From the NCBI GenBank assembly GCA_041491005.1, contig JBGPUE010000010.1:178-64177 (forward strand): 64,000 nucleotides of DNA, written 5' to 3'. The translations under genes were made by a program, and so were the position numbers. Every line of letters starts with the position of its first letter. The stretch's first letter is position 1. Below, one piece after another: positions 11,501 to 64,000 of this stretch. The notes below the pieces were generated by a model, which did not search any database, was not told where the DNA came from, and worked only from the letters and a program-made list of their open reading frames with translations. The DNA is from Candidatus Binataceae bacterium. Lineage in GTDB: Bacteria > Desulfobacterota > Binatia > Binatales > Binataceae.

Positions 11501-14500
11501 GGGTTGGCATAGATGACGTGATTGGCGATGCGCTGGAAGAGGTGCGCTTCGTCGGGACTGACGCCGAGATGGTGCAGCTCCACCTGAGCCTGCGTCCAGG
11601 CCAGAGTGACCGCGCGCTCGAAGGCTGTAAAGTCGTGGTGCTTGTCTGCCAAGTCAAGCGCTTCGACTCGGGAGGGTGCGATCAGGGTCCAGAATGCGAC
11701 GCGCGCCCGGCCACCCGGCGGAATTCTTAAACGGTGGCGAAGGCTGAAGATCGGATCGAGCACGGTGCCGACCGTGTTGGAAAGCGGCCGGCCGTCGATC
11801 ACGGATATCGGCGTTCGGATCCCTCGCGCACGCCCAAGGAACGCCGCCCGGTCGGTCTCGAATTGCAAGTCGCCCACCGTCTCGCCTTCTACTACGGCAA
11901 GGTGGGCTGCCCAGACCGGCGCCTCGCCGGGCGACCGCAGCCGCCGCGTTGCCATCACAGCGCCCACGTCGGCGACGAATTCCGTCTGCACGAACAGCTT
12001 GGAGAAGGCGGGGTGCGCGGCGTCTTCCGCTGGGGGCGCCAAGACGACCTCAGCATAGGAGGTCACCTCGATTTCCCGATACCGGTTTCCAAGGTTTGAG
12101 ATCGATACGCGGCGAACCTCGGCGTCGTCCTCGGGCGAAACCGCGATCTCGAGTGTTGTCGTGAGCGTCCCGTCGCGCCTCGTGATTTCGGCTCGATCCT
12201 CGGAGAACACCACCCCGTAACTATCCGGCTCGACGCCGGTCGGTTGATATCCCGCCGACCATACTTCGCCGGTACGCACATCGCGCAGAAAAACGTACGT
12301 TCCCCAGGAGTCGCAGGTAACGTCTTCTCGCCAACGCGTGACCGCGAGGTCCCGCCAACGGCTGTATCCGGAACCCGCTGCAGTGATCATCACTGCGTAT
12401 CTGCCGTTCGAGAGAAGGTGCGTGCGCGGAATCACGTCGTGTGGCGATCGGAATCGTCGCAGCATCGGCGCAACGATCTCGCGGATGTTGGGGGCCACCT
12501 TCACTTCCTCGGCACGCGGACGCGCAACCAAAACGTCGCGCGGAGTTCGTTCTTGCAGCAAGAGTTCCGTCGCCTGCATGACTGGCGCGGCGTGAAAACG
12601 GGCGCGCATCGTTCCGTTCCGGAGAGCGTCGTCAATCGCGACCAGAGTCATCCCCTGGTGATGCGCCATAAAAGCTCGAACGACCGCCACGTCTTCGCCC
12701 TCAGGGAGGCGCGTCGGCGTGTAGTCAAGAGCCTCATAGTAGCCATAGCGGCCGAGGCCACCGGCCGCAGCGAGACGTGTGAAGTTTCGCGCCGCAGCTT
12801 TGGCATCTACCATCGCGGCGAGGGCCGTTGCGTAAGGGGCGACGACGACGTTCTCGCTGAGTCCGCGCTTGAGCCCCAGTCCAGGGACGCCAAAATTTGA
12901 GTACTGATAGGTGAGCTCCAGATCTCGCGCGCTGTAAGCCGATTCCGAGACACCCCACGGCACGCCGAGCTCGGCGCCATACTTCATTTGCCGGCGGACG
13001 ACGAGGCGATTCGACTGCGCGAGCAGGCTCCCCTCCGGTGCGCGCATCACCAACGACGGCATCAGGTACTCGAACATCGAACCCGACCACGAGATCAGGG
13101 CCGAACCGCGATCTACCGGCGTCAGGTCGCGCCCGAGCCGGAACCAATGGCGCGCCGGCACGTCTCCCTTGGCGATCGCCACGAAGCTGGCCAAGCGTGC
13201 CTCAGAGGCGAGCAAGTCATAGCAGTTTGGATCGAGGCTGCCTTCCGCGACCCGGTACCCAATCGCAAGAAGTTGCCGCGCTGGGTCGAAGAGGAAGCCG
13301 AACTCCATGGCCTCGAACATTTTCCCCGCCATTTCGCCGAGCGCCGCGAGGCGACGTTCGAGCACGCGTGCGGCGTTCGCGGAACGTTCGAAGGCGTCAA
13401 TCAGAGCGTCGGCTCGCACCACCGCGGCAGATACTCCACGGGCGTGCGGGTCAAGTTCCGATCGGTAACGCGTCAGGCCTCTGATCGCCTCTTCGCAGTG
13501 ACCCGGCAGATCGGCAATGGTCGGAACGGATTCGAACAGATAGCCGAGCACCTCCTCCAGCGGAGCGTCTCCATCTACCGCTCTCTCAGCGGCGACGAAC
13601 GCGACGTCGCCCGCGAGCTTCGCCCATGGCATCAACTGTTCGACGTCGCGCTGATGACTCAGGATCGACGCCCGCACCGCTTCTACCCAGTTCAGCACTT
13701 GGGCGCTAGCGTCGTCTCCCCGTTCCTGGTTGAGCGTCCACGCAATGTCGACGGCCGTGTGGGCGTCAAGCGCGAGCCCCGCAAGGCGCCTTCCAACATC
13801 CGCCGGAGTCGTGGCAGGACTTCGCAGCGAAGCGGTGAGAGCGTCGAGTGCGTCCTCGATATGCTTTCGAGTTACCGTTTGAGTCCGCCGATCGTCAGCG
13901 AGCAAACGCAGACACTCGCGGGCGATTTCCAGCGCGTCATCGATCCCGGCGAGCCATCCCGGCCTCGGCACTGGACCGCCGATCATCTCCCGCAAAGCGT
14001 TCTCAAGGGCGATCAGGTGTCCCGCCAGATTCCCGCTATCCACAGACGAGACATATTTGGGGTCTAGCGGACGAAGCTTCCGCGTGTCGTACCAGTTGTA
14101 GAAGTGGCCGTGGAAGCGTTCGAGTCCGCTCATCGTCGTGAGAGTCGCGTCCAACCGCTCCAATGTTTCGAGCACACCCAGCCAGCCGAAATCGTGCGCG
14201 GCGGTCACGGACAGAAGATACAATCCGAGGTTGGTGGGCGACGTCCGATGAGCCAGCATTGGGATTGGTTCTTCCTGGAAGTTGTCAGGCGGAAGCATGT
14301 GATCCTCCGCGGTGACGAAGGTCTCGAAGAAGCTCCAGGTGCGGCGGGCGATGAGCTTGAGTGTCTGCGCATCTGTCTCGGAGGGCGGATTTGGGCCCAC
14401 CATGGGCGGTGGAAGGCTCGCCCATCGCGCGACCGCCGGCGATAGCATCCACAGGATCACGAATGGAGCCGCGATCGGCCATGACCCACCCCCCAAGCAT

Positions 14501-28145: not shown

Positions 28146-30722
28146 GTGCCCACCGAAATCGCAGAAGCCCAACCGGATCCCGTGTCGATCGAGGCGTTAT
28201 TCGAGCGCTGTCAAGTCACCGAGGCGGGCCTCTCGAGCGAAGAGGCTTCCCGCCGCCTCGTGCGATACGGCCCGAACGAACCAGTTCCGCTCCGCCGTGG
28301 TACCGCGATCACTCAGTTCATCCGGTTTTGCAGCAATCCGCTGGTCCTGATTCTCCTATCGGCGTGTGCTATTTCGGCCCTGGTCGGCCAGAGAATCGAT
28401 GCCGCGATCATTGCCGCGATGGTGGCAATCAGCATCGCGCTGAATTTCGTCCAGGCGTACCGGTCAGAACGCGCAGTGCTCCGCCTCCGTGAGCAGGTCG
28501 CACCGAGCGCAACCGCTCTGCGCAACGGACGGTACGTTGAGGTGCCCCGCCGCGCGATCGTGCCGGGAGATATCGTGCGGCTTGCCGCCGGCGATCTGGT
28601 ACCCGCTGACGCGCAGCTCATTCAGAGCCGCGATCTTCACCTTCAGCAGGCGGCGCTGACCGGAGAATCGATGCCGGTCGAAAAGTTCGCCATCGGGAGT
28701 GAACCCGTGGCAGACAAGTCGGCGAGCCTGATCTTTCTTGGCAGTTCGGTCGTTAGCGGCAGTGGCACAGCAGTAGTCATCGCCACGGGATCGGCCACGG
28801 CCTTCGGCGGCATCGCGGCCCGGCTGGCGGTCCGGCCGCCTGAGACCGAGTTCGATCGCGGCACGCGACAGTTCGGTTTCCTGATCATGAGGACGGTCTC
28901 TTTCCTCATCCTGTTCATCCTGCTGGTCAACCTGAGCGCGCATCGCAACGCACTCGAATCACTCCTTTTCGCAGTCGCTCTGGCAGTCGGGCTGACCCCT
29001 GAGTTCCTGCCGATGATCACGACGGTGACGCTCTCGATGGGCGCGGTGAGGATGGCGCGCAAGAAGGTGATCGTAAAGCACCTCATCGCGATCGAAGACT
29101 TCGGCAGTATCGATGTGCTGTGCAGCGACAAGACTGGCACGCTTACTACCGGCACGATGTCACTCGATCGTTCGCTCGACCCCTTCGGTCAGCCGTCGGA
29201 TCGTGCTCTATCGCTCGCCTATCTCAATAGCCGCTTCGAAACGGGCATCAAGAGTCCGCTTGATGCCGCGATATTGGCGAATCCGCGCGACGATGCAGAG
29301 CCTTACCAGAAGCTCGACGAAATCCCGTTTGACTTCGAGCGTCGCCGTCTTTCGATCCTGGCCGGAAGGAACGGCGCCCGTCTCCTTGTTACCAAGGGAG
29401 CGCCTGAGAGCGTCATCGGTGTCAGTGCATATTTCGAAGCTGGCGGAACTACGCATCCGCTGGAGGAAGAGCCACGACGCCGATGCGAAAAGACTTTCCG
29501 GGAGCTCAGCGCGCAGGGCTTTCGCGTGCTCGCGGTGGCGTGTCGCCAGATCGAGGGCCGTGATCGACTGGCGACGGACGATGAGCACGATCTCATCCTC
29601 ACCGGATTCCTAACCTTCTTCGATCCTCCAGTCGGAGATGCGTCAGAATCGCTTGCGGCGCTGCGACGGGACGGAGTGCAGGTAAAGATTCTGACCGGTG
29701 ACAATGAGCTGGTCACAAGGCATGTCTGCGAGCAGGTCGGGATAAAGGCTGAGCGGATCGTGCTCGGAGACGAGGTCCAGGGCATGAGCGACTCGGCATT
29801 GGGTCACGTCGCCGAACAGGTGGACGTCTTCGCGCGTGTGTCGCCGGCTCAGAAAAATCGGATCATTCAGGCTCTCAGGCAGCGCAGCCACGTGGTCGGC
29901 TTCCTGGGTGACGGCATCAATGACGCGCCCTCTCTGCACACCGCCGATGTCGGGATCTCAGTGGCCGGAGCTGTCGATGTAGCCAAGGATGCTGCCGATA
30001 TCATTTTGCTGGAGCACAATCTTCAGGTGCTCCACAGCGGCATCATCGAGGGCCGCAAGGCCTTCGGCAATGTTCTGAAGTATTTGCTGATGGGGACCAG
30101 TTCGAATTTCGGCAACATGTTCAGCATGGCGGCTGCGTCGGTCTTTTTACCATTCCTTCCGATGCTGCCGACCCAGATCCTGCTGAACAATTTCCTCTAT
30201 GATCTTGCCCAGGTGACGATTCCCACCGACAATGTCGACCCGCTGTACATCCGCAAGCCTCAACGCTGGGACATCACGATAATCCGCAACTTTATGCTGG
30301 TGATTGGTCCGATCAGTTCTATCTACGACTTCCTGACCTTCTACGTCCTGTTGAAGGTCTTTCACTCTTCCGAGCAGCTGTTTCACACCGGTTGGTTCGT
30401 CGAGTCGCTCGCGACGCAGACTCTGGTGCTTTTCGTGATCCGAACGGCGGGCGTCCCCTGGAGCAGTCTGCCCAGCCGGCCGCTGGCGGCGACGACCGTG
30501 TTGGTCGTCGTGATCGGCGTGTTGCTGCCGTTCTCTCCGCTCGCGCAGGCTTTGGGGTTTGTGCCCCTCCCCGGCCGCTACTTTGTCTTCCTGACAGTAG
30601 CGACGCTGACCTACCTGTGTCTGGTCGAAGTCGCGAAGCGCTGGCTCATGGGGCGGCTGCTGGCCAAGCCGGACCGGCGCGTCGGCCATCGTGTGCGCCG
30701 ACACTCTGGAGCCGTCGCATGA
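28146..30722 (+). CDS. mgtA: Magnesium-translocating P-type ATPase
   Basis: 858-aa ORF (GTG start) with TGES, DKTGTLT, GDGINDAPSL, LTPEFLPMI and SSNFGNMFSMA, characteristic of the MgtA/MgtB subgroup. Confidence 0.9.
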   Translation: MPTEIAEAQPDPVSIEALFERCQVTEAGLSSEEASRRLVRYGPNEPVPLRRGTAITQFIRFCSNPLVLILLSACAISALVGQRIDAAIIAAMVAISIALNFVQAYRSERAVLRLREQVAPSATALRNGRYVEVPRRAIVPGDIVRLAAGDLVPADAQLIQSRDLHLQQAALTGESMPVEKFAIGSEPVADKSASLIFLGSSVVSGSGTAVVIATGSATAFGGIAARLAVRPPETEFDRGTRQFGFLIMRTVSFLILFILLVNLSAHRNALESLLFAVALAVGLTPEFLPMITTVTLSMGAVRMARKKVIVKHLIAIEDFGSIDVLCSDKTGTLTTGTMSLDRSLDPFGQPSDRALSLAYLNSRFETGIKSPLDAAILANPRDDAEPYQKLDEIPFDFERRRLSILAGRNGARLLVTKGAPESVIGVSAYFEAGGTTHPLEEEPRRRCEKTFRELSAQGFRVLAVACRQIEGRDRLATDDEHDLILTGFLTFFDPPVGDASESLAALRRDGVQVKILTGDNELVTRHVCEQVGIKAERIVLGDEVQGMSDSALGHVAEQVDVFARVSPAQKNRIIQALRQRSHVVGFLGDGINDAPSLHTADVGISVAGAVDVAKDAADIILLEHNLQVLHSGIIEGRKAFGNVLKYLLMGTSSNFGNMFSMAAASVFLPFLPMLPTQILLNNFLYDLAQVTIPTDNVDPLYIRKPQRWDITIIRNFMLVIGPISSIYDFLTFYVLLKVFHSSEQLFHTGWFVESLATQTLVLFVIRTAGVPWSSLPSRPLAATTVLVVVIGVLLPFSPLAQALGFVPLPGRYFVFLTVATLTYLCLVEVAKRWLMGRLLAKPDRRVGHRVRRHSGAVA

Positions 30723-34110: not shown

Positions 34111-34644
34111 CTAGTCAGCCAACGTGACGGTGCTGGCCTGCGGACCCTTCTCGCCCTCTTCTTCGGCGAAGCGGACATGACTGCCGACTTCGAGACGCTC
34201 GAAGCCGGGCGCCAGCACGCTGTTGCGATGGAAGTAGATCTCGCGACCGTCGGGCGTCTCGAGGAATCCGTAGCCGTCATCGCTGAAGAGCCTCGCGACG
34301 CGCGCCAAGGCCGGCCCTTCGTGGCTCTTAACCGCGCCGCGCACCTCGCGCACGTGGTCTTCAAGCCGCCGCCGGGCCGCGTCGAAGGCCTCGCGGATCG
34401 CCGTCATGAGTTCCTCGTCGGACTGATGGCTAATCGCGAGTTCGCCCCTCGGGACCTTCAGGTCGATTCGAATCTTGAACGGACCGCCCCGGCGGTGATG
34501 GCGCACCGGAGCTTCGACCGCGATGCGGCATCCGCTGATTTGGGGATCAAACTGTTCGAGCTTCGCAGCCCTGCGCCGAAGCTCAGCCTCTTCTGCCTCG
34601 GTCAACTGAAAGTTACGCGCTGTGATTTGAACCGGATATTCCAC
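34111..34644 (-). CDS. hpf: Ribosome hibernation factor (HPF/RaiA, S30AE fold) fused to a C-terminal cold-shock domain
   Basis: 177-aa ORF with a GTG start and GAGAGGA SD. The N-terminal ~105 aa are HPF/RaiA-like (VQITARNFQLTEAEEAELRRRAAKLEQF...FKIRIDLKVPRGELAI...EELMTAIREAFDAARRRLED). The C-terminal ~65 aa are CSD-like (ARLFSDDGYGFLETPDGREIYFHRNSVLAPGFERLEVGSHVRFAEEEGEKGPQASTV). Confidence 0.85.
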   Translation of the reverse strand: MEYPVQITARNFQLTEAEEAELRRRAAKLEQFDPQISGCRIAVEAPVRHHRRGGPFKIRIDLKVPRGELAISHQSDEELMTAIREAFDAARRRLEDHVREVRGAVKSHEGPALARVARLFSDDGYGFLETPDGREIYFHRNSVLAPGFERLEVGSHVRFAEEEGEKGPQASTVTLAD

Positions 34645-34670: not shown

Positions 34671-34686
34671 CGCAATCCCTGTGCCA
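34671..34686 (-). promoter_or_regulatory. Sigma-54 (-24/-12) promoter of hpf-CSD
   Basis: The minus strand reads TGGCACAGGGATTGCG, a full match to TGGCAC-N5-TTGCW. The -12 GC is 28 nt upstream of the GTG start. Confidence 0.6.
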
Positions 34687-34877: not shown

Positions 34878-35300
34878 ATGCCCAGCGACGAATTCTACCG
34901 TGAGATCGAGCACACCGGGGATGCGGGTGTCGAGCTCGTCGCCACGTCGCGCGCTGAACTGTTCCGCAGGGCCGCGATCGCGATCGCGCGGCTGATGGTG
35001 GCGCCCGAGGGCGTCCGCCCGATCGAGCGGCGCGAGGTGCGGGTCAGTGCAGTGAGCGATGCCGACCTGATGCACGACCTGCTCGCGGCGTTGCTCAACT
35101 TGTTCCTGGTTGAAGGGTTCATTTGGTGCGATGCGGTGGTGAATGAAGACGGCGATTCAGTGCGCGCGGACGTAGTCGGCGAACGCTATGATCCCGCGCG
35201 CCACGAGCTGCGCACCGAGATCAAAGCCGTGACCTACCATCAGCTGTCGGTCGAGCGCGTGGGAGATCGCTGGCAGGCGCAGGTGATTTTCGACATCTAG
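34878..35300 (+). CDS. Archease (RtcB activator)
   Basis: 140-aa ORF with the N-terminal YREIEHTGDAGVELVA (HT.D motif) and C-terminal IKAVTYHQLSVE typical of archease. It lies directly upstream of rtcB. Confidence 0.85.
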   Translation: MPSDEFYREIEHTGDAGVELVATSRAELFRRAAIAIARLMVAPEGVRPIERREVRVSAVSDADLMHDLLAALLNLFLVEGFIWCDAVVNEDGDSVRADVVGERYDPARHELRTEIKAVTYHQLSVERVGDRWQAQVIFDI

Positions 35301-35359
35301 GCTGCCCCGCGCGCAATCGTGCGAAGCGCGGCCGTCGAACGCGTCGGCGGTATCCGGTT

Positions 35360-36796
35360 ATGGAACTCCAGAAGATCAGCGACTTTCTATGGGAAATCCC
35401 GCGCCATGGAGCGATGCGCGTGCCGGGGCGGATTTACGCCAGCCAGCAGATGATCGACGAACTCCGCGATGATCCAGCGCTGACGCAGGTCGCGAACGTC
35501 GCGTGCCTGCCCGGCATCGTCGGCTACTCGCTCGCGATGCCCGATATCCATTGGGGCTACGGATTTCCGATTGGCGGTGTTGCCGCGACCGATGCCGACG
35601 AAGGAGTGATTTCACCCGGCGGTGTCGGCTACGACATCAACTGCGGCGTGCGGCTGATCAAGACCAACCTCGAGTACACGGCCATCGCGGACAAAGTTGA
35701 TCGTCTGGCTGACGCGCTCTTCGATGCTGTGCCCGCGGGCGTTGGCTCCAGCGGCGCGATTCCCGGCCTCGCGACCGACGAGCTCAAACGTCTGCTCGGC
35801 TCCGGCGCCGTATGGGCGATGAACCACGGCTACGCTTCGATGGATGATCTCGAGCACACCGAAGAGAGCGGCCGGCTCGAGATGGCTGACCCATCGGCCG
35901 TCAGCGAGATGGCGCTCAGGCGCGGGCGCATCCAGCTCGGCACACTCGGCTCGGGCAATCACTTCCTCGAATGCGACCGTGTCGATCAGATCTACGACCC
36001 CGACATCGCGCGCGCCTTCGGCCTCGAGCTCGGCCAAGTGACTGTGATTATCCATTCAGGCTCGCGCGGACTGGGCCATCAGATCTGCGACGACCATTTG
36101 CGCGTGATCGGCAAGGCGATGAGCGGTTACGGGATCACTCTACCCGACCGCCAACTCGCCTCGGTGCCGATCCGCTCGCCGGAGGGTCGTGCCTACCTGG
36201 GCGCGATGGCGGCGGCGGCCAACTTCGCCTGGTGCAACCGGCAGATCATGATGCATCTGGCCGAGCGCGCCTTCATGGAGACGCTGGGCACAGGGCCGCG
36301 CGAAGTCGGCTTCTCGTTGCTGTACGACGTTTGCCATAACATCGCCAAGTTCGAGCGCCATGTGGTGGGCGGTGTCGAACGGCGCGTATGTGTGCATCGC
36401 AAAGGTGCAACGCGCGCCTTCGGCCCAGGCCATCCGGCGCTGCCCATCGCCTTTCGAATGATCGGGCAGCCAGTGCTGATCCCCGGTGACATGGGCCGCT
36501 ATTCGTATGTGCTGGTGGGACGCGAACGTGCGATGGCCGAGACCTTCGGTTCGACCTGTCACGGCGCTGGGCGCTTAATGAGCCGCGCCGAAGCCAAGCG
36601 CCGGGCGCGCGGCCGCGACCTACTGGCGGAATTGCGGGAGGCCGGCGTGACGATCAGGTACCAAGGCCGTTCGACAGTCGCGGAGGAAATGCCGGCCGCT
36701 TACAAGGATGTCGCAGACGTGGTCGGAGTGATGGAAGCGGCTGGCGTCAGCAAGCGAGTGGCGCGGCTCAAACCCTTCGCCGTAATAAAGGGTTGA
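35360..36796 (+). CDS. rtcB: RNA 3'-phosphate ligase RtcB
   Basis: 478-aa ORF with MPDIHWGYGFPIGGVAA, GVGYDINCGVR, GSGNHFLE, HSGSRGLGHQ, HRKGATRA and CHGAGR. Confidence 0.95.
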   Translation: MELQKISDFLWEIPRHGAMRVPGRIYASQQMIDELRDDPALTQVANVACLPGIVGYSLAMPDIHWGYGFPIGGVAATDADEGVISPGGVGYDINCGVRLIKTNLEYTAIADKVDRLADALFDAVPAGVGSSGAIPGLATDELKRLLGSGAVWAMNHGYASMDDLEHTEESGRLEMADPSAVSEMALRRGRIQLGTLGSGNHFLECDRVDQIYDPDIARAFGLELGQVTVIIHSGSRGLGHQICDDHLRVIGKAMSGYGITLPDRQLASVPIRSPEGRAYLGAMAAAANFAWCNRQIMMHLAERAFMETLGTGPREVGFSLLYDVCHNIAKFERHVVGGVERRVCVHRKGATRAFGPGHPALPIAFRMIGQPVLIPGDMGRYSYVLVGRERAMAETFGSTCHGAGRLMSRAEAKRRARGRDLLAELREAGVTIRYQGRSTVAEEMPAAYKDVADVVGVMEAAGVSKRVARLKPFAVIKG

Positions 36797-37132
36797 TGCC
36801 GCGTCCATCGGCCTAGCCACCGCTATTGACGTTATTGAGTCCTACGAGTGTGTCAGGCGATGCGCCGAGCGCTCTGGATGCCGTAAGCGTCAGCCGCGTC
36901 GCCGCAGTGCGCGATTACGCGACGCGAATCTGCCTGATTGGCGCTGCTGCATCTAACGGAGTCATTGGTTCCCGGCTGACCCTCCTTACGAAAGCACCCA
37001 TCTCCGACATACTCTGTCTTTCGACATGGCGTTCCAATTCATAAGCAGCGATGGTGCGATTCGCTGGACTTAGACGCGAGCATCGGCGCATCCAGTTGAT
37101 TGTGCGGGGCTGAATACCTCCGCCTGTTTGTG

Positions 37133-37148
37133 CGGCAGGAGAATTGCT
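37133..37148 (+). promoter_or_regulatory. Candidate sigma-54 promoter of usp
   Basis: CGGCAGGAGAATTGCT: GGCA and TTGCT at exact -24/-12 spacing, 26 nt upstream of the ATG at 37173. Confidence 0.5.
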
Positions 37149-37172
37149 CAGGGCTCATGCAATAAGTCGGCG

Positions 37173-37583
37173 ATGAGACTGCTGTTCCGAAAGATTCTTT
37201 GTCCTATCGATTTCGACCGCATCGCGATCGGAGCAATCCAACTCGCGCGCGAGCTAGCCGGGCGAGACGGCGGCCTCGTCTACCTCTTGTGCGTCGTCCC
37301 CAAAGACCGGACTCGTCTGAAAGCCGACTTGGAGCAGGTCGCACACAACAGCTTGCGCGGGATTGGCCGCAAATGGTTCGAGGGAAAAGCGCCGTACGAG
37401 ATCCTCGTTCGCGCCGGCCGGCCAGCGCGGGCGGTGCTTGATGCGGCGGAGGAACTCGGCGTTGACGTCGTGGTGATGGCAACTCATGGGCGAACAGGAA
37501 CCAGGCGTGTGCGTCTGGGCAGCGTTACCGAGGAAGTGGTTCGGCAGTCGACACGACCGGTGGTGACAATCAGGCCAACGTAG
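37173..37583 (+). CDS. Universal stress protein (UspA family)
   Basis: MRLLFRKILCPIDFD... and the C-terminal VVVMATHGRTGTRRVRLGSVTEEVVRQSTRPVVTIRP (G-2x-G-9x-GS/T ATP-binding type). The listed ORF start at 37128 is probably an extension. Confidence 0.85.
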   Translation: MRLLFRKILCPIDFDRIAIGAIQLARELAGRDGGLVYLLCVVPKDRTRLKADLEQVAHNSLRGIGRKWFEGKAPYEILVRAGRPARAVLDAAEELGVDVVVMATHGRTGTRRVRLGSVTEEVVRQSTRPVVTIRPT

Positions 37584-37637
37584 GGCTTGGCCTGCTTCGT
37601 CGATCTTAACGCGCCAAATCGAGGAGGACATCGCACA

Positions 37638-37838
37638 ATGAGCAGATACAATTGGGACGAAATCAACCGCACGGTTGAGGACTTAACCAAGCGTTACAAC
37701 ATCGCAGCGGTCGACAGCGTGACCGTCGGTGGAAATAGCGATGGAGTCGAGTTGACGCTCACCTCGCTGACCCCCGAGCAAGCCGAGCAGATCTTCAGGC
37801 TCATCGGGCTCAAGCAAGTCGAGCTCACAGTGCTCTGA
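37638..37838 (+). CDS. Small hypothetical protein (66 aa)
   Basis: ATG at 37638 preceded by GAGGAGG at a good distance. The sequence MSRYNWDEINRTVEDLTKRYNIAAVDSVTVGGNSDGVELTLTSLTPEQAEQIFRLIGLKQVELTVL has no family I recognise. The coding call rests on the RBS and its position within the operon. Confidence 0.5.
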   Translation: MSRYNWDEINRTVEDLTKRYNIAAVDSVTVGGNSDGVELTLTSLTPEQAEQIFRLIGLKQVELTVL

Positions 37839-38109
37839 TCGCGCATCAAGCCGCCTCACTCTCTCGTTGACGGTCCGCAATGGTAGTCGTCGCGAAGAGC
37901 ACCCTTGTTCCGACGATACGGCGGAGTCGCGTAGATGCGGCGAGGCTGCTTCGTCCCCCGCTTCGATGCCGGGCCTCACGATGTTTGTGTGGAGCGATCC
38001 GGAGCGCGGCTGGCGCCTTTGGAAACACATCAGAGGGGGCTGGCTTACCGTGGTTCACTGTGGCCTACCCGGAAGCTGAGAATTCAGTGCAACGAATCCA
38101 GGAGTTCGA

Positions 38110-38125
38110 TGGCAAGTTTCTTGCG
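38110..38125 (+). promoter_or_regulatory. Candidate sigma-54 promoter of hsp20
   Basis: TGGCAAGTTTCTTGCG: TGGCA and TTGC at exact -24/-12 spacing, 47 nt upstream of the hsp20 ATG, which has a strong AAGGAGGAG SD. Confidence 0.55.
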
Positions 38126-38170
38126 ACACAGCATCATCGAACACCAACAATTTGAAAGGAGGAGAGATCA

Positions 38171-38623
38171 ATGGGAGCATTAACCCCATGGAGGCCGTTT
38201 CGCGAAATGGAGCGATGGGCGCGCAATCTGGAGGGCCGCTTTCCGCGAGTCTTTGAGGACTGGCCGTTTCGGGCCGAGGAAGCGGAGTTTCTGCCGCCGA
38301 TTGAGAGCTTCGTCCAGAACGGCAATATCGTCGTGCGCGCCGACGTTCCCGGACTGGAGGCCAAGGACATCGAGGTCAGCGTTTTGGGCAACGTGCTGAC
38401 GATCAAAGGCGAGCGCAGGGATCAGAAGGAAGTCAAGGCCGAGGATTACATCCGGCGCGAGATCTCCTACGGCTCCTTCGAGCGCAGGCTTACGCTGCCC
38501 GATGGCGCCGATGCCGACAAGGTCAAGGCGCAGTTCAAAAACGGGACGGTCGAGATCACGATGCCGATGGCCAAGGGCGCCAGCCCCAAGAAAGTGCTGG
38601 TGGAGAGCGCAGAGAAGAAGTAG
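38171..38623 (+). CDS. Hsp20 / alpha-crystallin family small heat-shock protein
   Basis: 150-aa ORF with an alpha-crystallin domain: PPIESFVQNGNIVVRADVPGLEAKDIEVSVLGNVLTIKGER...ISYGSFERRLTLP...KAQFKNGTVEITMP. Confidence 0.9.
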   Translation: MGALTPWRPFREMERWARNLEGRFPRVFEDWPFRAEEAEFLPPIESFVQNGNIVVRADVPGLEAKDIEVSVLGNVLTIKGERRDQKEVKAEDYIRREISYGSFERRLTLPDGADADKVKAQFKNGTVEITMPMAKGASPKKVLVESAEKK

Positions 38624-38734
38624 TCAATCGGTCACAGGGGCAGGCGGCTACCACGCATCGCAGTTGTGCCTGCCTCCCCCGCGGCACTGGATTGTCGCAG
38701 CTCACGCGGCCTGACGCGAAAGGAGGAGATTCAG

Positions 38735-39337
38735 ATGCCAGCCGGGTCGACGATCTTGAATACCAATCACGAGCGGGTCGAGAAGCTCCGAACAGTGCTA
38801 GTCAGCCAACGCGACCATGCGTGGGCAAGGGTGCGGGAGTTCCGTCACGACCAGGAAGGCGACGCGATTCCGCCGCCGGCGGATGAGATGGACCTGGCGC
38901 GTTCGACCGCCGACCTCGAGACTCATGCGAGCCTGATCGAACAAGCGGAAGACCGGCTCGCACAAATCGACGACGCGCTGGCGCGGCTCAACGAAGGCCG
39001 CTATGGGATCTGCGCAAAATGCGTCGAGGAGATCGCGGTCGAGCGTCTCAACACGCTGCCCTTCGTGCTGTACTGCGTCGATTGCCAGCGCGAACTCAAC
39101 CGTGCGCGCCGCCGCGGCGAGGGCAGCCTGTCGCGCAGTTTCGGCCGCCGCTGGGAGACGCCGCTGGAGATGGATGAATCGCTGGAGAGGACCGACGCGA
39201 TGAGCCAGCCCGAGGAAGAAACCACCATACGCGAAGGCCGGCCTTTCGGCCGCGAAGAGGGCACTCCAGACCACGGCCGGATGCCGCGTACGGGCAGGGG
39301 CTTGGTTCGGCGCGGACGGCCCAAGCGCAGTGCGTAG
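38735..39337 (+). CDS. DksA/TraR-family C4 zinc-finger protein with a long basic C-terminal extension
   Basis: ATG at 38735 after AAGGAGGA. It has a coiled-coil region with DEMDLA (DxxDxA tip motif) and the zinc finger CAKC-x17-CVDC. About 80 further residues are rich in Arg/Glu/Gly. Confidence 0.8.
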   Translation: MPAGSTILNTNHERVEKLRTVLVSQRDHAWARVREFRHDQEGDAIPPPADEMDLARSTADLETHASLIEQAEDRLAQIDDALARLNEGRYGICAKCVEEIAVERLNTLPFVLYCVDCQRELNRARRRGEGSLSRSFGRRWETPLEMDESLERTDAMSQPEEETTIREGRPFGREEGTPDHGRMPRTGRGLVRRGRPKRSA

Positions 39338-55830: not shown

Positions 55831-57162
55831 TCATTCGATTCCATAGCGTCTGCGTTTGCGCCAGAGCGTGGTGGCGTTGATTCCGAGCGTTGCGGCGGCC
55901 TCATCAAGTGTCGCGCTCTCGGCCAGCACTCGCGCGATATGTTCTCGTTCGACGTCTTCGAGACTCGCGGCAGGCGAGGTGGTGCCCGGCGCCTGCGGTA
56001 TATCGCGGAAGATCGAATCGGGCAGATCGTCGGGCCCGATGGTATCGCTGCGGCTTAGCACCGCGGCGCGCTCAAGAGCGTTACGCAACTCGCGCACGTT
56101 TCCCGGCCATTGATAGCGGGCCAGGGCCGCGCCGGCCTGCGGCGCGAGCCGGAGCTGCGGACGGTGGTTGCGAATCGCCGCCGCACGCAGCATCCACTCC
56201 GCCAGCGCCGGGATGTCCTCGCGGCGCTCGCACAGCGGCGGCACGCGGAGCGTAATCACGTTGAGCCGGTAGAACAGATCTTCGCGGAAGCGGCGCGCCT
56301 TGACCTCGTCTTCCAGATCGCGATTGGACGCGGCGATGATTCGCGCGTCGACCCGGATCGTGCGTTCTCCGCCCACGCGTTCGAAGCTCTGTTCCTGGAC
56401 GAAGCGTAGAAATTTGGTCTGCAGTGCGGCCGAGAGGTCGGCGATCTCGTCGAGAAATACCGTGCCGCCGTCGGCCGCCTCCAGGCGGCCGGGCTTGTCC
56501 TTGATGGCGCCGGTGAATGAACCGCGCATATGGCCGAAGAGCTCGCTTTCGAGCAGCTGCTCCGAGAGCGTCGTGCAGTTGACCACGACGAACGGGCGCT
56601 CGCATCGCGGACTCCATCTGTGAATCTGGCGGGCGAGGACGTTCTTGCCGGTGCCGCTCTCGCCGCTGAGCAGGATCGTCGCCTCGCTGCGCGCAGCCTG
56701 CCGCGCGGTTTCCAGCATGCGAACCATTGCGGCGCTGCGCGATTCCAGCATCGGCATCTCGTCGATAGTCTCGCGTAGCACCTGGTTCTCCGCCTGCAGG
56801 CTGTGCATCTGCAGCGCGCGATCGACCACATGGCGTATCTGGTCGAGCGAGAAAGGCTTGGCAATATAGTCGGAGGCGCCGGCCTTCATCGCGGCCACTG
56901 CGTTCTCGACGGTCGCGTAAGCCGTCATCAGGATCACCGGCGTGTAGGGATGCAGCCGCTTCGCCTCGTTGAGCAGCTCGAGTCCGTTCATCTCCGCCAT
57001 CCGGAAGTCGGTCAAAACCAGATCCAGCGGTCCTGCGGCGAGCGTCTGTATCGCCGCGACGCCGCTGGCGGCTTCGCGCACCTCGTGTCCGAGCGACTGG
57101 AAGAACGCCGCGAGGCTGCGGCGAATGTTCTTCTCGTCGTCGACGATGAGCAGTCGCGCCAT
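55831..57162 (-). CDS. Sigma-54-dependent response regulator (NtrC family)
   Basis: Met at 57162 (MARLLIVDDEKNIRR). It has a receiver domain (LVLTDFRMAEMNG), an AAA+ sigma-54 interaction domain (GESGTGKN, GSFTGA variant of GAFTGA) and a C-terminal HTH (ATLGINATTLWRKRRRYGI). An ATGA overlap joins it to the kinase stop. The listed 551-aa ORF has a spurious 108-codon extension. Confidence 0.9.
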   Translation of the reverse strand: MARLLIVDDEKNIRRSLAAFFQSLGHEVREAASGVAAIQTLAAGPLDLVLTDFRMAEMNGLELLNEAKRLHPYTPVILMTAYATVENAVAAMKAGASDYIAKPFSLDQIRHVVDRALQMHSLQAENQVLRETIDEMPMLESRSAAMVRMLETARQAARSEATILLSGESGTGKNVLARQIHRWSPRCERPFVVVNCTTLSEQLLESELFGHMRGSFTGAIKDKPGRLEAADGGTVFLDEIADLSAALQTKFLRFVQEQSFERVGGERTIRVDARIIAASNRDLEDEVKARRFREDLFYRLNVITLRVPPLCERREDIPALAEWMLRAAAIRNHRPQLRLAPQAGAALARYQWPGNVRELRNALERAAVLSRSDTIGPDDLPDSIFRDIPQAPGTTSPAASLEDVEREHIARVLAESATLDEAAATLGINATTLWRKRRRYGIE

Positions 57163-58949
57163 CAGGCCTCCGTCATCGCCGGCAATTCGACTACGAAGCG
57201 GCTGCCGCGATCGCCGTTGCTTTCGACGAAGATCCGGCCGCCGTGTGCCTCGACGATGTCCCTTACGATTGCGAGTCCCAGTCCTGCCGAACCGGCTCCA
57301 CCGCCGTTGGCGGCGTATTGAGCGAAGCGCTCGAAGATGTAGTCGCGAATCTCCGGCGCAATCCCGGGCCCCGAGTCCGCGACTTCGAGTATCACCGTAT
57401 GATTGCGCGGCCGCGCAACGATCTCGATTTTTCCGCCGCTGGGCGTATAGCGCAGCGCATTGCCGATCAGATTGGAGACCATCCACGACAGCTTCACAGG
57501 ATCTCCGTTGAGCTGCGGCACAGGCTCGATGCGCCGCTCAAGCACGACTTGCTTCTCGCGCGCCTGCAGGGCGAAGCGTTCGCTCACCTCCTCCGCGAGG
57601 CGGCCGATGTCGAGCGGCCGGCGCTGCACCGCGATCGCGGCTGCTTCGCCGCGGGCGAGGCTCAGCAGGTTGTCGCTAAGCTGCTTCATCCGCGCGCATT
57701 CCTCAAGGATAGCGCCCAACAACGCCCGCTGTCTTGGCTCCAGGCCCTCATGCTCGCGGCCGAGCAGCTCGGCAGAAAGCGCGAGCGAGGTGAGCGGCGT
57801 GCGGAGCTCATGCGAGAGCGTCGCGACCAGGTTCGTGCGTGCGCGATCCTGATCGCGCAGGTAGGTAACATCCTGCATGATGAGCAGCGTACCCAGCGCG
57901 CCGCCCTCGGGATGGCGCAGCGGCACCGGCTTCAGCACGTAAGAGTGTTCGCGGCCGCGCACGTGGAGTTCCACCTCGATGCGCTGGGCGCCGGAAGCGG
58001 ACTTGCGCGACGTCCTGAGCGCGTCCCGGATGCGCAGGTAGTGCGGATGGTTGCTGCTCAGATCATCGAAGATGCTGCCGAGCGCGTCGGCCGCATCGAT
58101 GCCCAGAATGATCGCCGCGATCTCGTTGATGTGTGCGACGACACCTCCCGAGTCAATCAGCACGACGCCGTCCTCGAGGCTCTCGATGATCGCCTCGGTC
58201 TTGCTCTTCTCATAGACCAGCCGCTCGACGTTGAGCTTCTCATACTGTTCCAGCCGCTCGGCCATCTCGTTGAACTCGCGCGCCACGATATCGAGTTCGG
58301 TGAGTCGCTGCGGGCCGAGCCGCAAATGCGTGTCGCGGCGGCTGATTCCGCGCAGCCGCTCGGCAAGTTCCGTCAGCGGCCTCGACAGTGTCCACGACAG
58401 CCCCCACGACAGTGCCACGCCGGTGAAAATGAGCACCAGCAATCCGGCTGCGAACTCGTAGGTCAGGCGCATGCCAAGCCGCATCGCGCGGCTATCGGCA
58501 CGGAACATCGCCGCCCGGTTCATCTGGATCAGATCGTCGAGCAACCCATGAAGCCGGTCATACCCTGCGTCGCGCTCCGCCTGGGGCTGCCCAGCGGCGA
58601 TCTCGCGAAATAACTCGAGAGCATTCGACTCGACGCTGTGTGCCAGCTCCGGCTCACCCACTTCCGTATGGATATGATTCTCGACGTCAATCCAGTGCAT
58701 AAAGGCAGCGCTCGAGGAGGGCAGCGCCGCGCGCCCTTGGCCCGCACGATCGGCAAGTTGCAACCGCCTGAGCTCTGAGTGCATGTGCTGAGCGGCGTCG
58801 ATGCTGACGTAGTTGCGGTACAGTGTCTCGCGAATCGCACCGCCGAGCCGGTACAAGTGCGGCAGGGCGTATCCGCCAAGAATCAAAACCACCGCCAGCA
58901 TCAGCAACGTACCGTTGCGAATCCGGCCGCGGAGCGATGGCGTCTTCAT
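57162..58949 (-). CDS. Sensor histidine kinase (TM-sensor-TM, HAMP, PAS, HisKA, HATPase)
   Basis: Met at 58949 (MKTPSLRGRIRNGTLLMLAVVLILGGY), with a second TM LLVLIFTGVALSWGLSW followed by a HAMP-like segment. H-box LSHELRTPLTSL; ATPase boxes GNALRYT, DSGPGI and GLGLAIV. An ATGA overlap joins it to the kdpD-N stop. Confidence 0.9.
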   Translation of the reverse strand: MKTPSLRGRIRNGTLLMLAVVLILGGYALPHLYRLGGAIRETLYRNYVSIDAAQHMHSELRRLQLADRAGQGRAALPSSSAAFMHWIDVENHIHTEVGEPELAHSVESNALELFREIAAGQPQAERDAGYDRLHGLLDDLIQMNRAAMFRADSRAMRLGMRLTYEFAAGLLVLIFTGVALSWGLSWTLSRPLTELAERLRGISRRDTHLRLGPQRLTELDIVAREFNEMAERLEQYEKLNVERLVYEKSKTEAIIESLEDGVVLIDSGGVVAHINEIAAIILGIDAADALGSIFDDLSSNHPHYLRIRDALRTSRKSASGAQRIEVELHVRGREHSYVLKPVPLRHPEGGALGTLLIMQDVTYLRDQDRARTNLVATLSHELRTPLTSLALSAELLGREHEGLEPRQRALLGAILEECARMKQLSDNLLSLARGEAAAIAVQRRPLDIGRLAEEVSERFALQAREKQVVLERRIEPVPQLNGDPVKLSWMVSNLIGNALRYTPSGGKIEIVARPRNHTVILEVADSGPGIAPEIRDYIFERFAQYAANGGGAGSAGLGLAIVRDIVEAHGGRIFVESNGDRGSRFVVELPAMTEA

Positions 58950-60163
58950 CGCGCGTTCTCCTGCTCGGAGTCGCCCACAATCTCGACGTCGACACCACGC
59001 GCCTGCGCGAGTATGCGCATGGTCACATCGAGGTGAAGCCACCGCCGCCAGATCGGCTGATGAGTACGCCCGAGGATGATTTTCGTGATGCCCTTTTCGC
59101 GGGCAAAGTCAAGCATCGTCCTGACGATGTCATCGCCCTTGAGCCAGACTGATTCCGCGCCCAGATCGCCAGCCAGGTTGATGTTGTCGAGCAGCGCCAC
59201 GAAGTCGCTGGTGCGCACCTTGTGCACCGATTCGGACGGCGTTTCCACGTGGATGGCATACCACTCGGCGTTGAGCCGCCCCGCGATACGCGAGGCCTTG
59301 CGCAACAGCTTGTCACCGTCGGCCGGATTGGAGGAGAGCCCGACCATGATCCGCTCGGTGATTTGGAGCCGGCGGCCGCCTTCGCGCTTGAGCGCTTCCT
59401 GCCCTTCGCGCTGGCGGCTGAGCCCGCGCGCAACCTCACGAAGAGCCATCTCGCGCAACGAGGCAAGATTGCTCGGCTTGAAGAAGTTTCGCAGCGCCTG
59501 CTCGATCTGCGCGGCAGGATAGATCTTGCCTTCTCGCAGCCGCTCACGGAGCGCCTCGACCGTCACGTCGACGTTTACGACCTGATCCGCACGCGCAAGG
59601 AAGGCGTCGGGCACGGTCTCGCGCACCTCGATACCCGTCACCCGTTTCATCAGCGGGTTGAGGCTCTCGACGTGCTGGATGTTCATCGCCGAGATGACGT
59701 TGATGCCTGCGGCAACCAGATCCTCGACGTCCTGGTAGCGCTTTTCGTGTTTGGAGCCGGGTACGTTGGTATGCGCCAGCTCGTCGACGATCGCGACCTC
59801 CGGTTTGCGCGCGAGGATGGCGTCGACATCCATCTCCTGCAACGTCACGCCCCGGTGCGCAATCGTGCGGCGCGGGACGACCTCCAATCCCGCGATTTTC
59901 TCGGCAGTTTCGGCGCGCCCATGAGTCTCGACCACCCCGATTACAGCGTCGACGCCTTTGGCGCGCAGCTGATGCGCCTCTTCGAGCATCTCGTACGTCT
60001 TGCCGACACCCGCTGCAGCGCCGACGTAGATCTTGAGGCGGCCCTTGAACGCCTGCGGAACGAGATCGAGAAACGACTCGGGCTCGGGGCGCACATCGTC
60101 AGGGGGCCGGGCAGAGCCACGGTCCGCTTCACCCTTCGGCGACTGCGTCATTCGCCAAGTCAT
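58946..60163 (-). CDS. kdpD: Stand-alone KdpD N-terminal sensor domain + Usp-like domain (no transmitter)
   Basis: 405-aa ORF with LKIYVGAAAGVGKTYEMLEEAHQLRAKGVDAVIGVVETHGRAET (KdpD N-domain with Walker A), then a Usp-like region (ERIMVGLSSNPADGDKLLRKASRIAGRLNAEWYAIHVE). The ORF ends before any membrane, GAF or kinase domain. Confidence 0.85.
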   Translation of the reverse strand: MTWRMTQSPKGEADRGSARPPDDVRPEPESFLDLVPQAFKGRLKIYVGAAAGVGKTYEMLEEAHQLRAKGVDAVIGVVETHGRAETAEKIAGLEVVPRRTIAHRGVTLQEMDVDAILARKPEVAIVDELAHTNVPGSKHEKRYQDVEDLVAAGINVISAMNIQHVESLNPLMKRVTGIEVRETVPDAFLARADQVVNVDVTVEALRERLREGKIYPAAQIEQALRNFFKPSNLASLREMALREVARGLSRQREGQEALKREGGRRLQITERIMVGLSSNPADGDKLLRKASRIAGRLNAEWYAIHVETPSESVHKVRTSDFVALLDNINLAGDLGAESVWLKGDDIVRTMLDFAREKGITKIILGRTHQPIWRRWLHLDVTMRILAQARGVDVEIVGDSEQENAR

Positions 60164-62900: not shown

Positions 62901-64000
62901 CTAGAAAAGCCTGCCGGTCATCATTGCGAGCTGTTCAACAATCGGGCCGAGCGCGAGTGCCGGAAAGAAGGTCAGCGCGCCCACGATCACGACAACGGAA
63001 ACCAGCAGTACCACGAAGGTCGCACCGTTGGTGGGAAAAGTCCCGGCGCTCGGCGCCGCGATTTTCTTGCCGGCCAGCGAACCCGCGATCGCCAGCGCGG
63101 GAATCGCCATCATGAAGCGGCCGGAGAGCATCGTGATTCCGAGGGTCACGTTGTAGAAGGTCGTGTTGGCGTTGAGCCCCGCGAACGCCGACCCGTTATT
63201 TGCCACTGCCGATGAGAATGCATAGAGAATTTCCGAAAAGCCATGCGGCCCCATATTGGCGCGGCTCGCAAGCCCCGCCTCGGTGACGCTTGCGGCGGCT
63301 GCGGGCAGCAGGATAAGCGCGGGGAAGATCAGCACGTAGAGCATCACCAGCTTCATCTCGCGCGCCTGAATCTTCTTACCCAGGTATTCTGGCGTGCGGC
63401 CCACCATCAGCCCTGCGATGAAGACCGCGAGCACCGCCATCACGAGCATCCCGTACAAGCCCGATCCCACGCCGCCAAAAACCACTTCGCCCAGATGCAG
63501 GTTCACCAGCGCCATCAGCCCGCCCAATGGCGTGAAGCTGTCATGCATCGAGTTAACCGAGCCGTTGGAGGCCGCGGTCGTGGCCGTCTCCCAAATCCCG
63601 GAGCTGACGATGCCGAAGCGGACTTCCTTGCCCTCCATGTTGCCACCGCTTTGACCGCCGGTGGCTGCCTGATTGATTCCCATGCTCGCGAACTGCGGGT
63701 TGCCATGCTGCTCCGACCAGACCGCGGGCACGAGCGTCATCACATAGAGCACGGCCATCGCGGCAAACAACGCCCATCCTTGCCGCATGTCGCCGGCCAT
63801 CTTGCCGAACGTCAAAGTGAGCGCTCCGCCGAGCGCCAGGATTGCCAGCATCTCGATCAGATTTGTCAGCCTGGTCGGATTCTCGTACGGATGCGCCGAG
63901 TTGGCGTTGAAGAAGCCGCCGCCGTTGGTGCCGAGCTGTTTGATTGCGATTTGCGACGCGACGGGGCCCTGCGGGATGGTCTGCGCAGCGCCTTCGAGCG
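62901..64000 (-). CDS. kdpA: Potassium-transporting ATPase subunit A (5' end outside the window)
   Basis: The frame stays open to the window edge. The translation upstream of the listed Met reads ..[33 protein letters not shown].., the conserved KdpA selectivity-filter-like region. The stop is 6 nt before the kdpB start. Confidence 0.9.

Follow-up and report, generated by a model that had tools for sequence, protein, structure and literature searches.

How is a kdp potassium-pump operon controlled when neither a canonical KdpD nor an OmpR-type KdpE stands beside it? The question is raised by a stretch of 64,000 nucleotides (64 kb, hereafter the window) on contig JBGPUE010000010.1 of a Candidatus Binataceae bacterium, in which kdpABC is followed on the same strand by genes for a stand-alone protein made up of the N-terminal domain of KdpD and a Usp domain (KdpD-N), for a sensor histidine kinase and for a sigma-54-dependent response regulator (Table 1). 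We propose, with a probability of about 0.75, that the regulatory half of this kdpFABC operon is a two-component system of the sigma-54 type that takes the place of KdpD/KdpE, together with a KdpD-N protein that acts on the pump. An earlier sequence-only reading of the same DNA had regarded the arrangement as unusual. This view had to be given up, since the arrangement was described in 2011 for Desulfovibrio vulgaris Hildenborough, with in vitro binding, and is widespread; the locus is a fresh example of an already described Kdp control scheme, and not a new system.

The regulatory genes of the kdp locus

Genes and domains were called from the open reading frame (ORF) list, Pfam, NCBIfam, hydropathy and motif reading of the window. 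The kdpA gene runs off the end of the window, and its start, kdpF and the promoter all lie beyond base 64000. The part of KdpA that is present showed 71-76% identity (tblastn) to the orthologous loci, in two of which (L002 and L005) Pfam KdpA was found in the called genes, and KdpB carries the motifs TGES (aa 157-160) and DKTGT (aa 305). The gene products proposed in the sequence-only reading, namely a KdpD-N/Usp protein, a kinase having a transmembrane (TM)-bounded sensor region plus HAMP and PAS domains, and an NtrC-family regulator with a GSFTGA loop, were all borne out by Pfam, hydropathy and motifs. The same is true of what it found missing, as neither a canonical KdpD (KdpD-N, Usp, four TM segments, GAF, DHp and CA in one polypeptide) nor an OmpR-type KdpE was found at the kdp locus with Pfam and NCBIfam. 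Because the domain matches are strong and lie in long ORFs, chance is not an issue for the gene trio.

Both junctions within the trio had been read as ATGA overlaps. This is correct for the stop of KdpD-N and the start of the kinase, where the 4-nt overlap is identical in the orthologous loci. It is not correct at 57162-57165, where bases 57165-57162 are CTGA and the junction of kinase and regulator is instead a TGATG; nevertheless, the kinase and regulator genes are tightly coupled, despite an overlap of 1 nt rather than 4 nt. Nothing convincing in the way of an internal promoter or terminator was found in the interval from kdpC to KdpD-N or downstream of the regulator gene, and no Rfam family, including the cyclic di-AMP (c-di-AMP) riboswitch, was found in the window or in the kdp loci of its relatives.

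The kinase is laid out as TM1, a periplasmic four-helix bundle, TM2, HAMP, PAS, DHp (with H380) and CA. Hydropathy gave two hydrophobic segments for the kinase, aa 10-33 and aa 162-188, and none for KdpD-N or the regulator. AlphaFold models were made both of the full-length kinase, from an alignment of Binataceae-type and Flavobacterium homologues, and of its first 195 residues alone, and aa 34-161 were modelled as a four-helix bundle continuous with both TM helices, at a predicted local distance difference test (pLDDT) score of about 90-97. The sensor residues L43, N46, Y47, S49, T95, E96, G98, E99, N144 and R150 are invariant between the Binataceae-type and Flavobacterium homologues. Placed from the helix boundaries, they would be grouped at the end of the bundle that is closer to the membrane, which suggests that the kinase sensor may contain a conserved small-ligand or ion site. 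Homologues of the kinase are auto-annotated by the Joint Genome Institute (JGI) as 'NtrC family sensor kinase KinB', and the best PDB profile match of the sensor domain was the KinB sensor 3kkb; as the score of this match was not significant, orthology of the sensor domain to KinB is not established.

The regulator is composed of a receiver domain (REC), an AAA+ domain and HTH_8 (Pfam Sigma54_activat, 7e-67; HTH_8, 2e-9), with the GSFTGA at aa 214-219 (bases 56506-56523). An AAA+ domain with a GAFTGA-type loop, combined with a Fis-type helix-turn-helix, places it among the NtrC-family bacterial enhancer-binding proteins (bEBPs). Its best NCBIfam matches (AtoC, NtrC and ZraR) were all under their cutoffs.

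Distribution of the module and its promoter

The module formed by split KdpD and the sigma-54 regulator is widespread. Database relatives of the kinase number more than 2,000, and those nearest to it (66-72% identity) are labelled "Candidatus Binataceae" where named, and the order kdpF-kdpA-kdpB-kdpC, KdpD-N, kinase, sigma-54 regulator is the same in Binataceae-type contigs (L002-L005; L090-L110). A search of metagenomes with KdpD-N yielded 80 loci. Among the 25 closest (69-77% identity) a kinase homologue lies immediately downstream in every case; in 21 of the 25 the kinase match has 60-70% identity and is full length wherever the contig reaches, and the regulator comes next after the kinase in every such locus whose contig reaches far enough. 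Of the other 55 stand-alone KdpD-N genes, which are more remote (44-55% identity), most are without this kinase, the exceptions being L152-L156.

A scan of species-representative genomes with the kinase alignment gave mostly generic H-box matches, and there were no Binataceae-type orthologues among the matches listed. Among these same matches, at least 10 Bacteroidota loci with kdpABC have a full-length kinase homologue (24-30% identity) adjoining KdpD-N (41-45%), and in at least seven of them (L009, L010, L014, L019-L021 and L026) a sigma-54 regulator (37-41%) is located upstream of kdpA. In Flavobacterium (L010) the genes run regulator, DUF7674, kdpF, kdpA, kdpB, kdpC, porin, KdpD-N (373 aa) and kinase (HAMP-PAS-HisKA-HATPase). 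A third order, with regulator, kinase, in some cases a small ORF, kdpF, kdpABC and KdpD-N, was found in contigs from Desulfobacterales (L166), a Victivallis-like bacterium (L167) and Anaerohalosphaeraceae (L168). The survey of the three-gene arrangement that the sequence-only reading had called for has therefore found the trio beside kdpABC in Bacteroidota, Desulfobacterales, Lentisphaerota-like and Planctomycetota contigs as well as in Binataceae-type ones, and the linkage of kinase and regulator to kdpABC extends over at least five phyla and three gene orders.

The promoter was examined in relatives; the only public contig with an identical KdpB (L001, 5.1 kb) ends inside kdpA, and a sigma-54 consensus scan of the window itself gave matches at chance frequency, with none in the kdp region. 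In all 11 Binataceae-type loci with upstream sequence, one TGGCAY-N6-TGC[ATG] element (GG-N10-GC) was found upstream of kdpF, as in TGGCACGGCGAGTGCA and TGGCACGCGGTGTGCT. Its distance to the kdpA start is about 225-238 nt in seven of the 11 loci and about 590-620 nt in L005, L090 and L092, where an extra ORF of ~111 aa sits between, while for L094 the distance was left out, the kdpA start used being a mis-call. The pattern TGGCAY-N6-TGC occurred 14 times in 379 kb (both strands, ten non-duplicate loci), and 10 of the 14 occurrences were the sites upstream of kdpF. Furthermore, a palindrome, TGC[AG]N3[TC]GCA, stands at a fixed position of -85 to -90 from the element in 10 of the 10 non-duplicate loci, five of which have another copy at -63 to -66, and the density of this palindrome is 5.3/kb in the kdp leaders as against 0.08/kb elsewhere in the same loci.

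Canonical sigma-54 promoters were also found to precede the kinase-kdp operon in the loci of the third gene order. In L167, TGGCATGAATTTTGCT lies upstream of this operon and is itself preceded by TTGCAGGTTGCAA and TTGCATTTTGCAA, 23 nt apart, and TGGCACGGATTTTGCT lies upstream of the regulator gene; in L166 and L168, TGGCACGGCTTGTGCT is located 41 nt before the kinase start. The suggestion of the sequence-only reading that kdp is read from a -24/-12 promoter was thus confirmed for the orthologous loci and for L166-L168, the window's own promoter lying outside the sequence. For the operon in the window sigma-54 control of kdp is predicted by comparison with these relatives, and as such is well supported.

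Two small ORFs were observed in these leaders. The inserted ORF of ~111 aa (L005 3871-4209, with equivalents in L090 and L092), which is located between the sigma-54 promoter and the small ORF/kdpF, contains a CxRCKW motif and has no family match. The other is an unannotated hydrophobic ORF of ~27 aa directly upstream of kdpF, which is conserved in three phyla (for example MWDLIFILATVAFFIVSLAYVQGCQRL, MLSALYLILGLVLFVALAALTVVCDKI and MLNTILLILAMLICFVLFFKTIDFFEKM), overlaps the kdpF start in the Binataceae-type loci and has no NCBIfam match. In the Binataceae-type loci without the ~111-aa insert it starts 12-13 nt past the sigma-54 16-mer, and its mRNA would therefore be nearly leaderless; the membrane peptide that it encodes may serve either as an additional small subunit of the pump or as a leader peptide. 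In Bacteroidota (bEBP-kdpF intergenic regions of L009, L010, L014, L019, L020 and L074) a -24/-12-like element was seen in which TTGG or TTGA replaces TTGC. The Bacteroidota leaders also hold one or two TTYCA-N3-YGRAA palindromes, a pattern defined post hoc, which resemble the experimentally derived DVU3334/Sfum_2622 site GTTTCATTTTGAAAT, and some of which double as the terminator hairpin of the upstream regulator gene.

From gene and domain content, cross-phylum synteny, the promoter and palindromes of the relatives and motif conservation we infer the following circuit, of which the signal, the phosphotransfer, the phosphorylation of KdpB and the existence of such a promoter beyond the window's end are the presumed parts. 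The membrane kinase would sense its signal, presumably K+ or ionic status, by means of the periplasmic four-helix bundle and/or the cytoplasmic PAS domain, and would phosphorylate the REC domain of the NtrC-type regulator. Binding sites of the regulator would be paired palindromes of the TGCA-N3-TGCA type, some 60-90 bp ahead of the -24/-12 promoter (TGGCAY-N6-TGC) that precedes kdpF, and, once bound, the regulator would drive sigma-54 RNA polymerase through kdpFABC, KdpD-N, the kinase gene and its own gene. As the regulator gene would be part of the same transcript, the system would be autoregulated.

Not all relatives have retained the complete set. In Binataceae-type L086 (10004-12471) and in L087-L089, KdpD-N occurs with a kinase truncated after DHp, and neither kdpABC nor the regulator is nearby; in the human-gut Lentisphaeria-like L154 (5291-10553) and in L152, L153 and L155, the regulator, kinase and KdpD-N occur without kdpABC within about 10 kb. 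Versions that have decayed, among them the pump-less truncated kinases of L086-L089, could mean that the trio in the window is itself decayed or auxiliary, and redundant to a full-length kdpDE which regulates from elsewhere in the genome. We consider this improbable, as the three ORFs are intact with every catalytic motif, the whole operon and its promoter are kept at 66-85% protein identity over many Binataceae-type contigs, and species with short KdpD forms are mostly without KdpE (PMC11018627).

The role of the stand-alone KdpD-N protein

In the KdpD-N protein, Pfam KdpD was matched over aa 40-246 (1.1e-94) and Usp over aa 270-388 (1.5e-5), and by hydropathy and Pfam a TM segment, a HisKA and a HATPase domain are all absent. 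NCBIfam NF038185, KdpD_non_kinase ('KdpD-like non-kinase potassium sensor'), a model that spans the whole protein, gave 387 bits and did not reach its curated cutoff of 550. Positions 4-376 of NCBIfam PRK10490 (E. coli-type KdpD) align with aa 22-400, and PDB 2r8r, the structure of the Pseudomonas syringae KdpD N-domain, matched aa 40-247 with E=3.9e-64. A segment of the Usp domain, SSN-X21-WYAIH, is unlike SxS-X20-FTAxY, which we take to be the c-di-AMP motif of S. aureus, and no conclusion was drawn from it.

Recent work has identified the KdpD N-domain as an atypical serine kinase (ASK): with its Walker A/B site it phosphorylates the TGES serine of KdpB, Ser162, and the pump is thereby inhibited (Silberberg et al. 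2024, PMC11018627). In the same study the isolated N-domain was found to be active, and the natural short KdpD/Usp of Deinococcus geothermalis likewise phosphorylated KdpB when c-di-AMP was supplied (PMC11018627). The features of an ASK are present in the sequence at hand, which has a KdpD domain with the Walker A G-X5-GKT and the D-E of Walker B, without DHp/CA, and a TGES serine in the cognate KdpB. Because of the 2024 finding, and because Walker A, Walker B and the KdpB TGES are all kept here, the stand-alone KdpD-N/Usp protein is most likely a post-translational brake, acting as a predicted atypical serine kinase on KdpB. The soluble protein would be made by read-through from the pump genes and would, most likely, phosphorylate the TGES serine of KdpB and shut the pump at sufficient K+, as in E. 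coli and D. geothermalis. The sequence-only reading had KdpD-N modulating a kinase that did not look cognate to it. With a serine kinase on KdpB Ser162 known since 2024 and its motifs kept, such modulation is not required, and KdpD-N may signal to the kinase as well.

A role of this kind would be the main one if KdpD-N/Usp were a cytoplasmic co-sensor which docks on the kinase, sets its kinase/phosphatase balance and rebuilds KdpD in trans, with phosphorylation of KdpB secondary or absent. We see this as a possibility, to be held with some reserve. KdpD-N adjoins the kinase and is translationally coupled to it in the window and in the Binataceae-type and Bacteroidota loci, and the pair persists without nearby pump genes in L086-L089, albeit with a truncated kinase, as does the trio in L152-L155. 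Heermann and colleagues are said to have found in 2000 that the N-domain of E. coli KdpD complements the C-terminal half in trans. In the opposite direction, KdpD-N of L166-L168 is placed after kdpC, with the pump genes between it and the kinase, which is where a protein directed at the pump would be expected, many stand-alone KdpD-N genes (L111-L151 and L157-L165) have no such kinase adjacent, and the ASK motifs and the KdpB TGES are intact.

In L166 (16441-18126; Desulfobacterales) and L168 (16432-18123; Anaerohalosphaeraceae) the KdpD-N protein, of 561-563 aa, was observed to carry a C-terminal PTS_EIIA_2 domain (EIIA-Ntr-like). According to work cited in a passage of PMC8534201, KdpD of E. 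coli is bound by free EIIA-Ntr and becomes more active as a kinase. By analogy, the fusion looks like the EIIA-Ntr/KdpD interaction fixed by gene fusion, and it speaks for the co-sensor role.

The co-sensor and pump-brake roles are compatible with each other. They could be joined in a single proposal, in which KdpD-N/Usp is an obligate third component that would read cytoplasmic status (ATP, a nucleotide messenger or, in some lineages, the fused EIIA-Ntr), phosphorylate KdpB and also dock on the kinase with its four-helix bundle, HAMP and PAS, thereby gating sigma-54 transcription of kdp. This proposal is a tentative one and rather unlikely as it stands. If it were true, the 'short KdpD' phyla, for which transcriptional control was called unknown in 2024, would share one conserved three-protein circuit. 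The ~27-aa membrane peptide might in addition belong to the pump or to its control.

Several points have to be set against a sigma-54 two-component system with KdpD-N acting on the pump. The operon's own promoter lies beyond the window, and its sigma-54 dependence is extrapolated from relatives with 66-85% protein identity, control of kdp in this lineage being predicted from sequence. The signal of the kinase, presumably K+ or ionic status, is deduced, and as the window covers 64 kb a canonical kdpDE may lie elsewhere in the genome. The serine-kinase role is argued from motif conservation, and the adenine-contacting Trp39 of E. coli is a Tyr in the present KdpD-N, as it is in 2r8r. Finally, the canonical TGGCAC-N5-TTGC was not found in the Bacteroidota kdp loci, the leaders of which have only a -24/-12-like GGnAY-N4-TTTG[GA], in 6 of 9 loci and as a pattern defined post hoc.

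Other targets in the window and comparison with known systems

The sequence-only reading also named the regulator, as the only bEBP in the window, as a candidate activator of a sigma-54 island at 34-41 kb. That it is the only one was upheld, as tblastn with the regulator gave no second sigma-54 activator in the window at E<=1e-3, and the island does have a good, near-consensus sigma-54 element, TGGCACAGGGATTGCG, in front of a gene for a ribosome hibernation factor (Table 1). In addition, DVU3334, the corresponding regulator of D. vulgaris, gave peaks at further loci besides kdp when assayed by DNA-affinity-purified-chip (DAP-chip; PMC3333781). The kinase and regulator might then serve another regulon, such as this stress island, with their position next to kdp being incidental. 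However, the kdp-type palindrome is absent upstream of the 34.7 kb element and paired sites were found nowhere in the window, the kinase and regulator remain linked to kdpABC over all the phyla and gene orders given above, and in the relatives the sigma-54 promoter and palindromes sit before kdpF or before the kinase-kdp operon. This alternative is therefore very improbable, and no evidence was seen in the window that the kdp regulator cross-regulates the island, leaving the candidacy unsupported. For annotation of the window the three genes are Kdp regulators, with no target found for the trio elsewhere in it. About 50 nt upstream of TGGCACAGGGATTGCG there is a GTCAC-N14-GTGAC inverted repeat, and a gene for an activator of this element was not found in the window. 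A second, distant P-type ATPase is encoded at 28566-30020 (+), with 25% identity to KdpB over about 500 aa (tblastn).

Table 1. Positions of the kdp genes, of elements within them and of further features (window coordinates unless a locus is named)
Feature	Position	Strand	Evidence or remark
kdpA, 3' part	62901..64000, continues past window end	(-)	ORF runs off window
kdpB, P-type ATPase subunit, 680 aa	60852..62894	(-)	Pfam E1-E2_ATPase, Hydrolase
kdpC, 201 aa	60239..60844	(-)	Pfam KdpC 2e-72
KdpD-N + Usp, stand-alone, soluble, 405 aa	58946..60163	(-)	Pfam KdpD, Usp; directly after kdpC
Walker A-like G-X5-GKT of KdpD-N (GAAAGVGKT, aa 48-56)	59996..60022	(-)	Motif as defined in PMC11018627
Walker B of KdpD-N (DELAH, aa 127-131)	59771..59785	(-)	Motif reading
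ATGA overlap, KdpD-N stop/kinase start	58946..58949	(-)	Read from sequence
Sensor histidine kinase, 595 aa	57162..58949	(-)	Pfam HAMP, PAS, HisKA, HATPase_c
Periplasmic four-helix-bundle sensor domain, aa 34-161 (modelled)	58467..58850	(-)	AlphaFold
TGATG junction, 1-nt overlap	57160..57164	(-)	Kinase stop TGA 57164-57162, regulator ATG 57162-57160
Sigma-54-dependent response regulator, 443 aa	55831..57162	(-)	Pfam Response_reg, Sigma54_activat, AAA_lid_14, HTH_8
Sigma-54 element TGGCACAGGGATTGCG, near-consensus	34671-34686	(-)	27 nt upstream of S30AE-CSD gene
Ribosome hibernation factor (S30AE) fused to cold-shock domain (S30AE-CSD or HPF-CSD gene)	34111-34644	(-)	
Archease + RtcB	34878-36796	(+)	Divergent from S30AE-CSD gene
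Usp, Hsp20 and DksA-like genes	37128-39337	(+)	After archease/RtcB
ORF of ~27 aa	L097 5355-5438; equivalents in L002, L005, L090, L092, L099, L101, L108, L110; L166 about 11866-11949; L009 about 3190-3276		

The residual value of the locus lies in the cross-phylum distribution of the module, in its predicted promoter/enhancer architecture and in the question of KdpD-N talking to the kinase. A scheme of split KdpD with a sigma-54 two-component system, little studied by experiment, is extended from Desulfovibrio to "Candidatus Binataceae"-type soil bacteria, and the module brings with it conserved sensor residues as well as a predicted promoter and enhancer sites. It is also a candidate for the transcriptional control of kdp in Bacteroidota and in the other lineages treated here. 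In the 2024 KdpD census Bacteroidota are named among the phyla mainly with short KdpD, and control in some organisms without full-length KdpD is given as 'constitutive or unknown' (PMC11018627). Sigma-54 or NtrC-type partners are not mentioned in that census (PMC11018627), and a literature search for kdp with sigma-54, RpoN or NtrC, or in Bacteroidetes, found only PMC3333781 and PMC4641369, both on Desulfovibrio.

Among the known systems, the KdpD of D. geothermalis is similar in having KdpD and Usp only, in a gene downstream of the pump genes, with Walker A, Walker B and the KdpB TGES serine kept (PMC11018627). The short-KdpD species of that study differ from the present locus in their separate regulators, which are a TM/GAF/DHpCA kinase, an unlinked two-component system or an 'unknown mechanism' (PMC11018627). 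The KinB/AlgB pair of P. aeruginosa resembles the kinase and regulator described here, in that a kinase with an all-helical periplasmic sensor, HAMP and PAS is paired with an NtrC-family regulator. E. coli KdpD/KdpE also controls kdpFABC, and the KdpD N-domain and Usp are homologous; however, the 4-TM/GAF module of E. coli is absent here, where a separate kinase has four-helix-bundle, HAMP and PAS input, and the regulator is NtrC-type (sigma-54) whereas that of E. coli is OmpR-type (sigma-70).

The system described in D. vulgaris Hildenborough has the same set of parts. Rajeev et al. (2011; PMC3333781) applied DAP-chip to all response regulators of this bacterium and demonstrated that DVU3334 binds upstream of its own kdp operon in vitro. 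The histidine kinase is split into DVU3336 (K+ sensor + UspA, corresponding to KdpD-N/Usp) and DVU3335; DVU3334 is annotated as a sigma-54-dependent response regulator, with motif sites GTTACATTTTGTAAC (-149 from kdpF), ATTACAAAATGAAAT and GTTTCATTTTGAAAT; and orthologues have been reported from D. vulgaris Miyazaki as well as from Syntrophobacter fumaroxidans (PMC3333781). In the sigma-54 regulome of Kazakov et al. (2015; PMC4641369), DVU3334, whose loop is GAFTGA, is the member assigned to potassium uptake. Compared by domain descriptions, both systems have, in the same gene order, kdp(F)ABC, KdpD-N with Usp (DVU3336), a separate histidine kinase (the 'sensory box' kinase DVU3335) and a sigma-54 regulator (DVU3334). 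They differ in the activator loop, which is GAFTGA in DVU3334 and GSFTGA here, and in lineage, D. vulgaris belonging to the phylum Desulfobacterota whereas the present locus is, by our assignment, Binataceae-type. The kdpF-upstream palindrome GTTACATTTTGTAAC has a TACA half-site where the Binataceae-type relatives have TGCA, yet its xCA-N3-TGx geometry is that of their TGCA-N3-TGCA sites.

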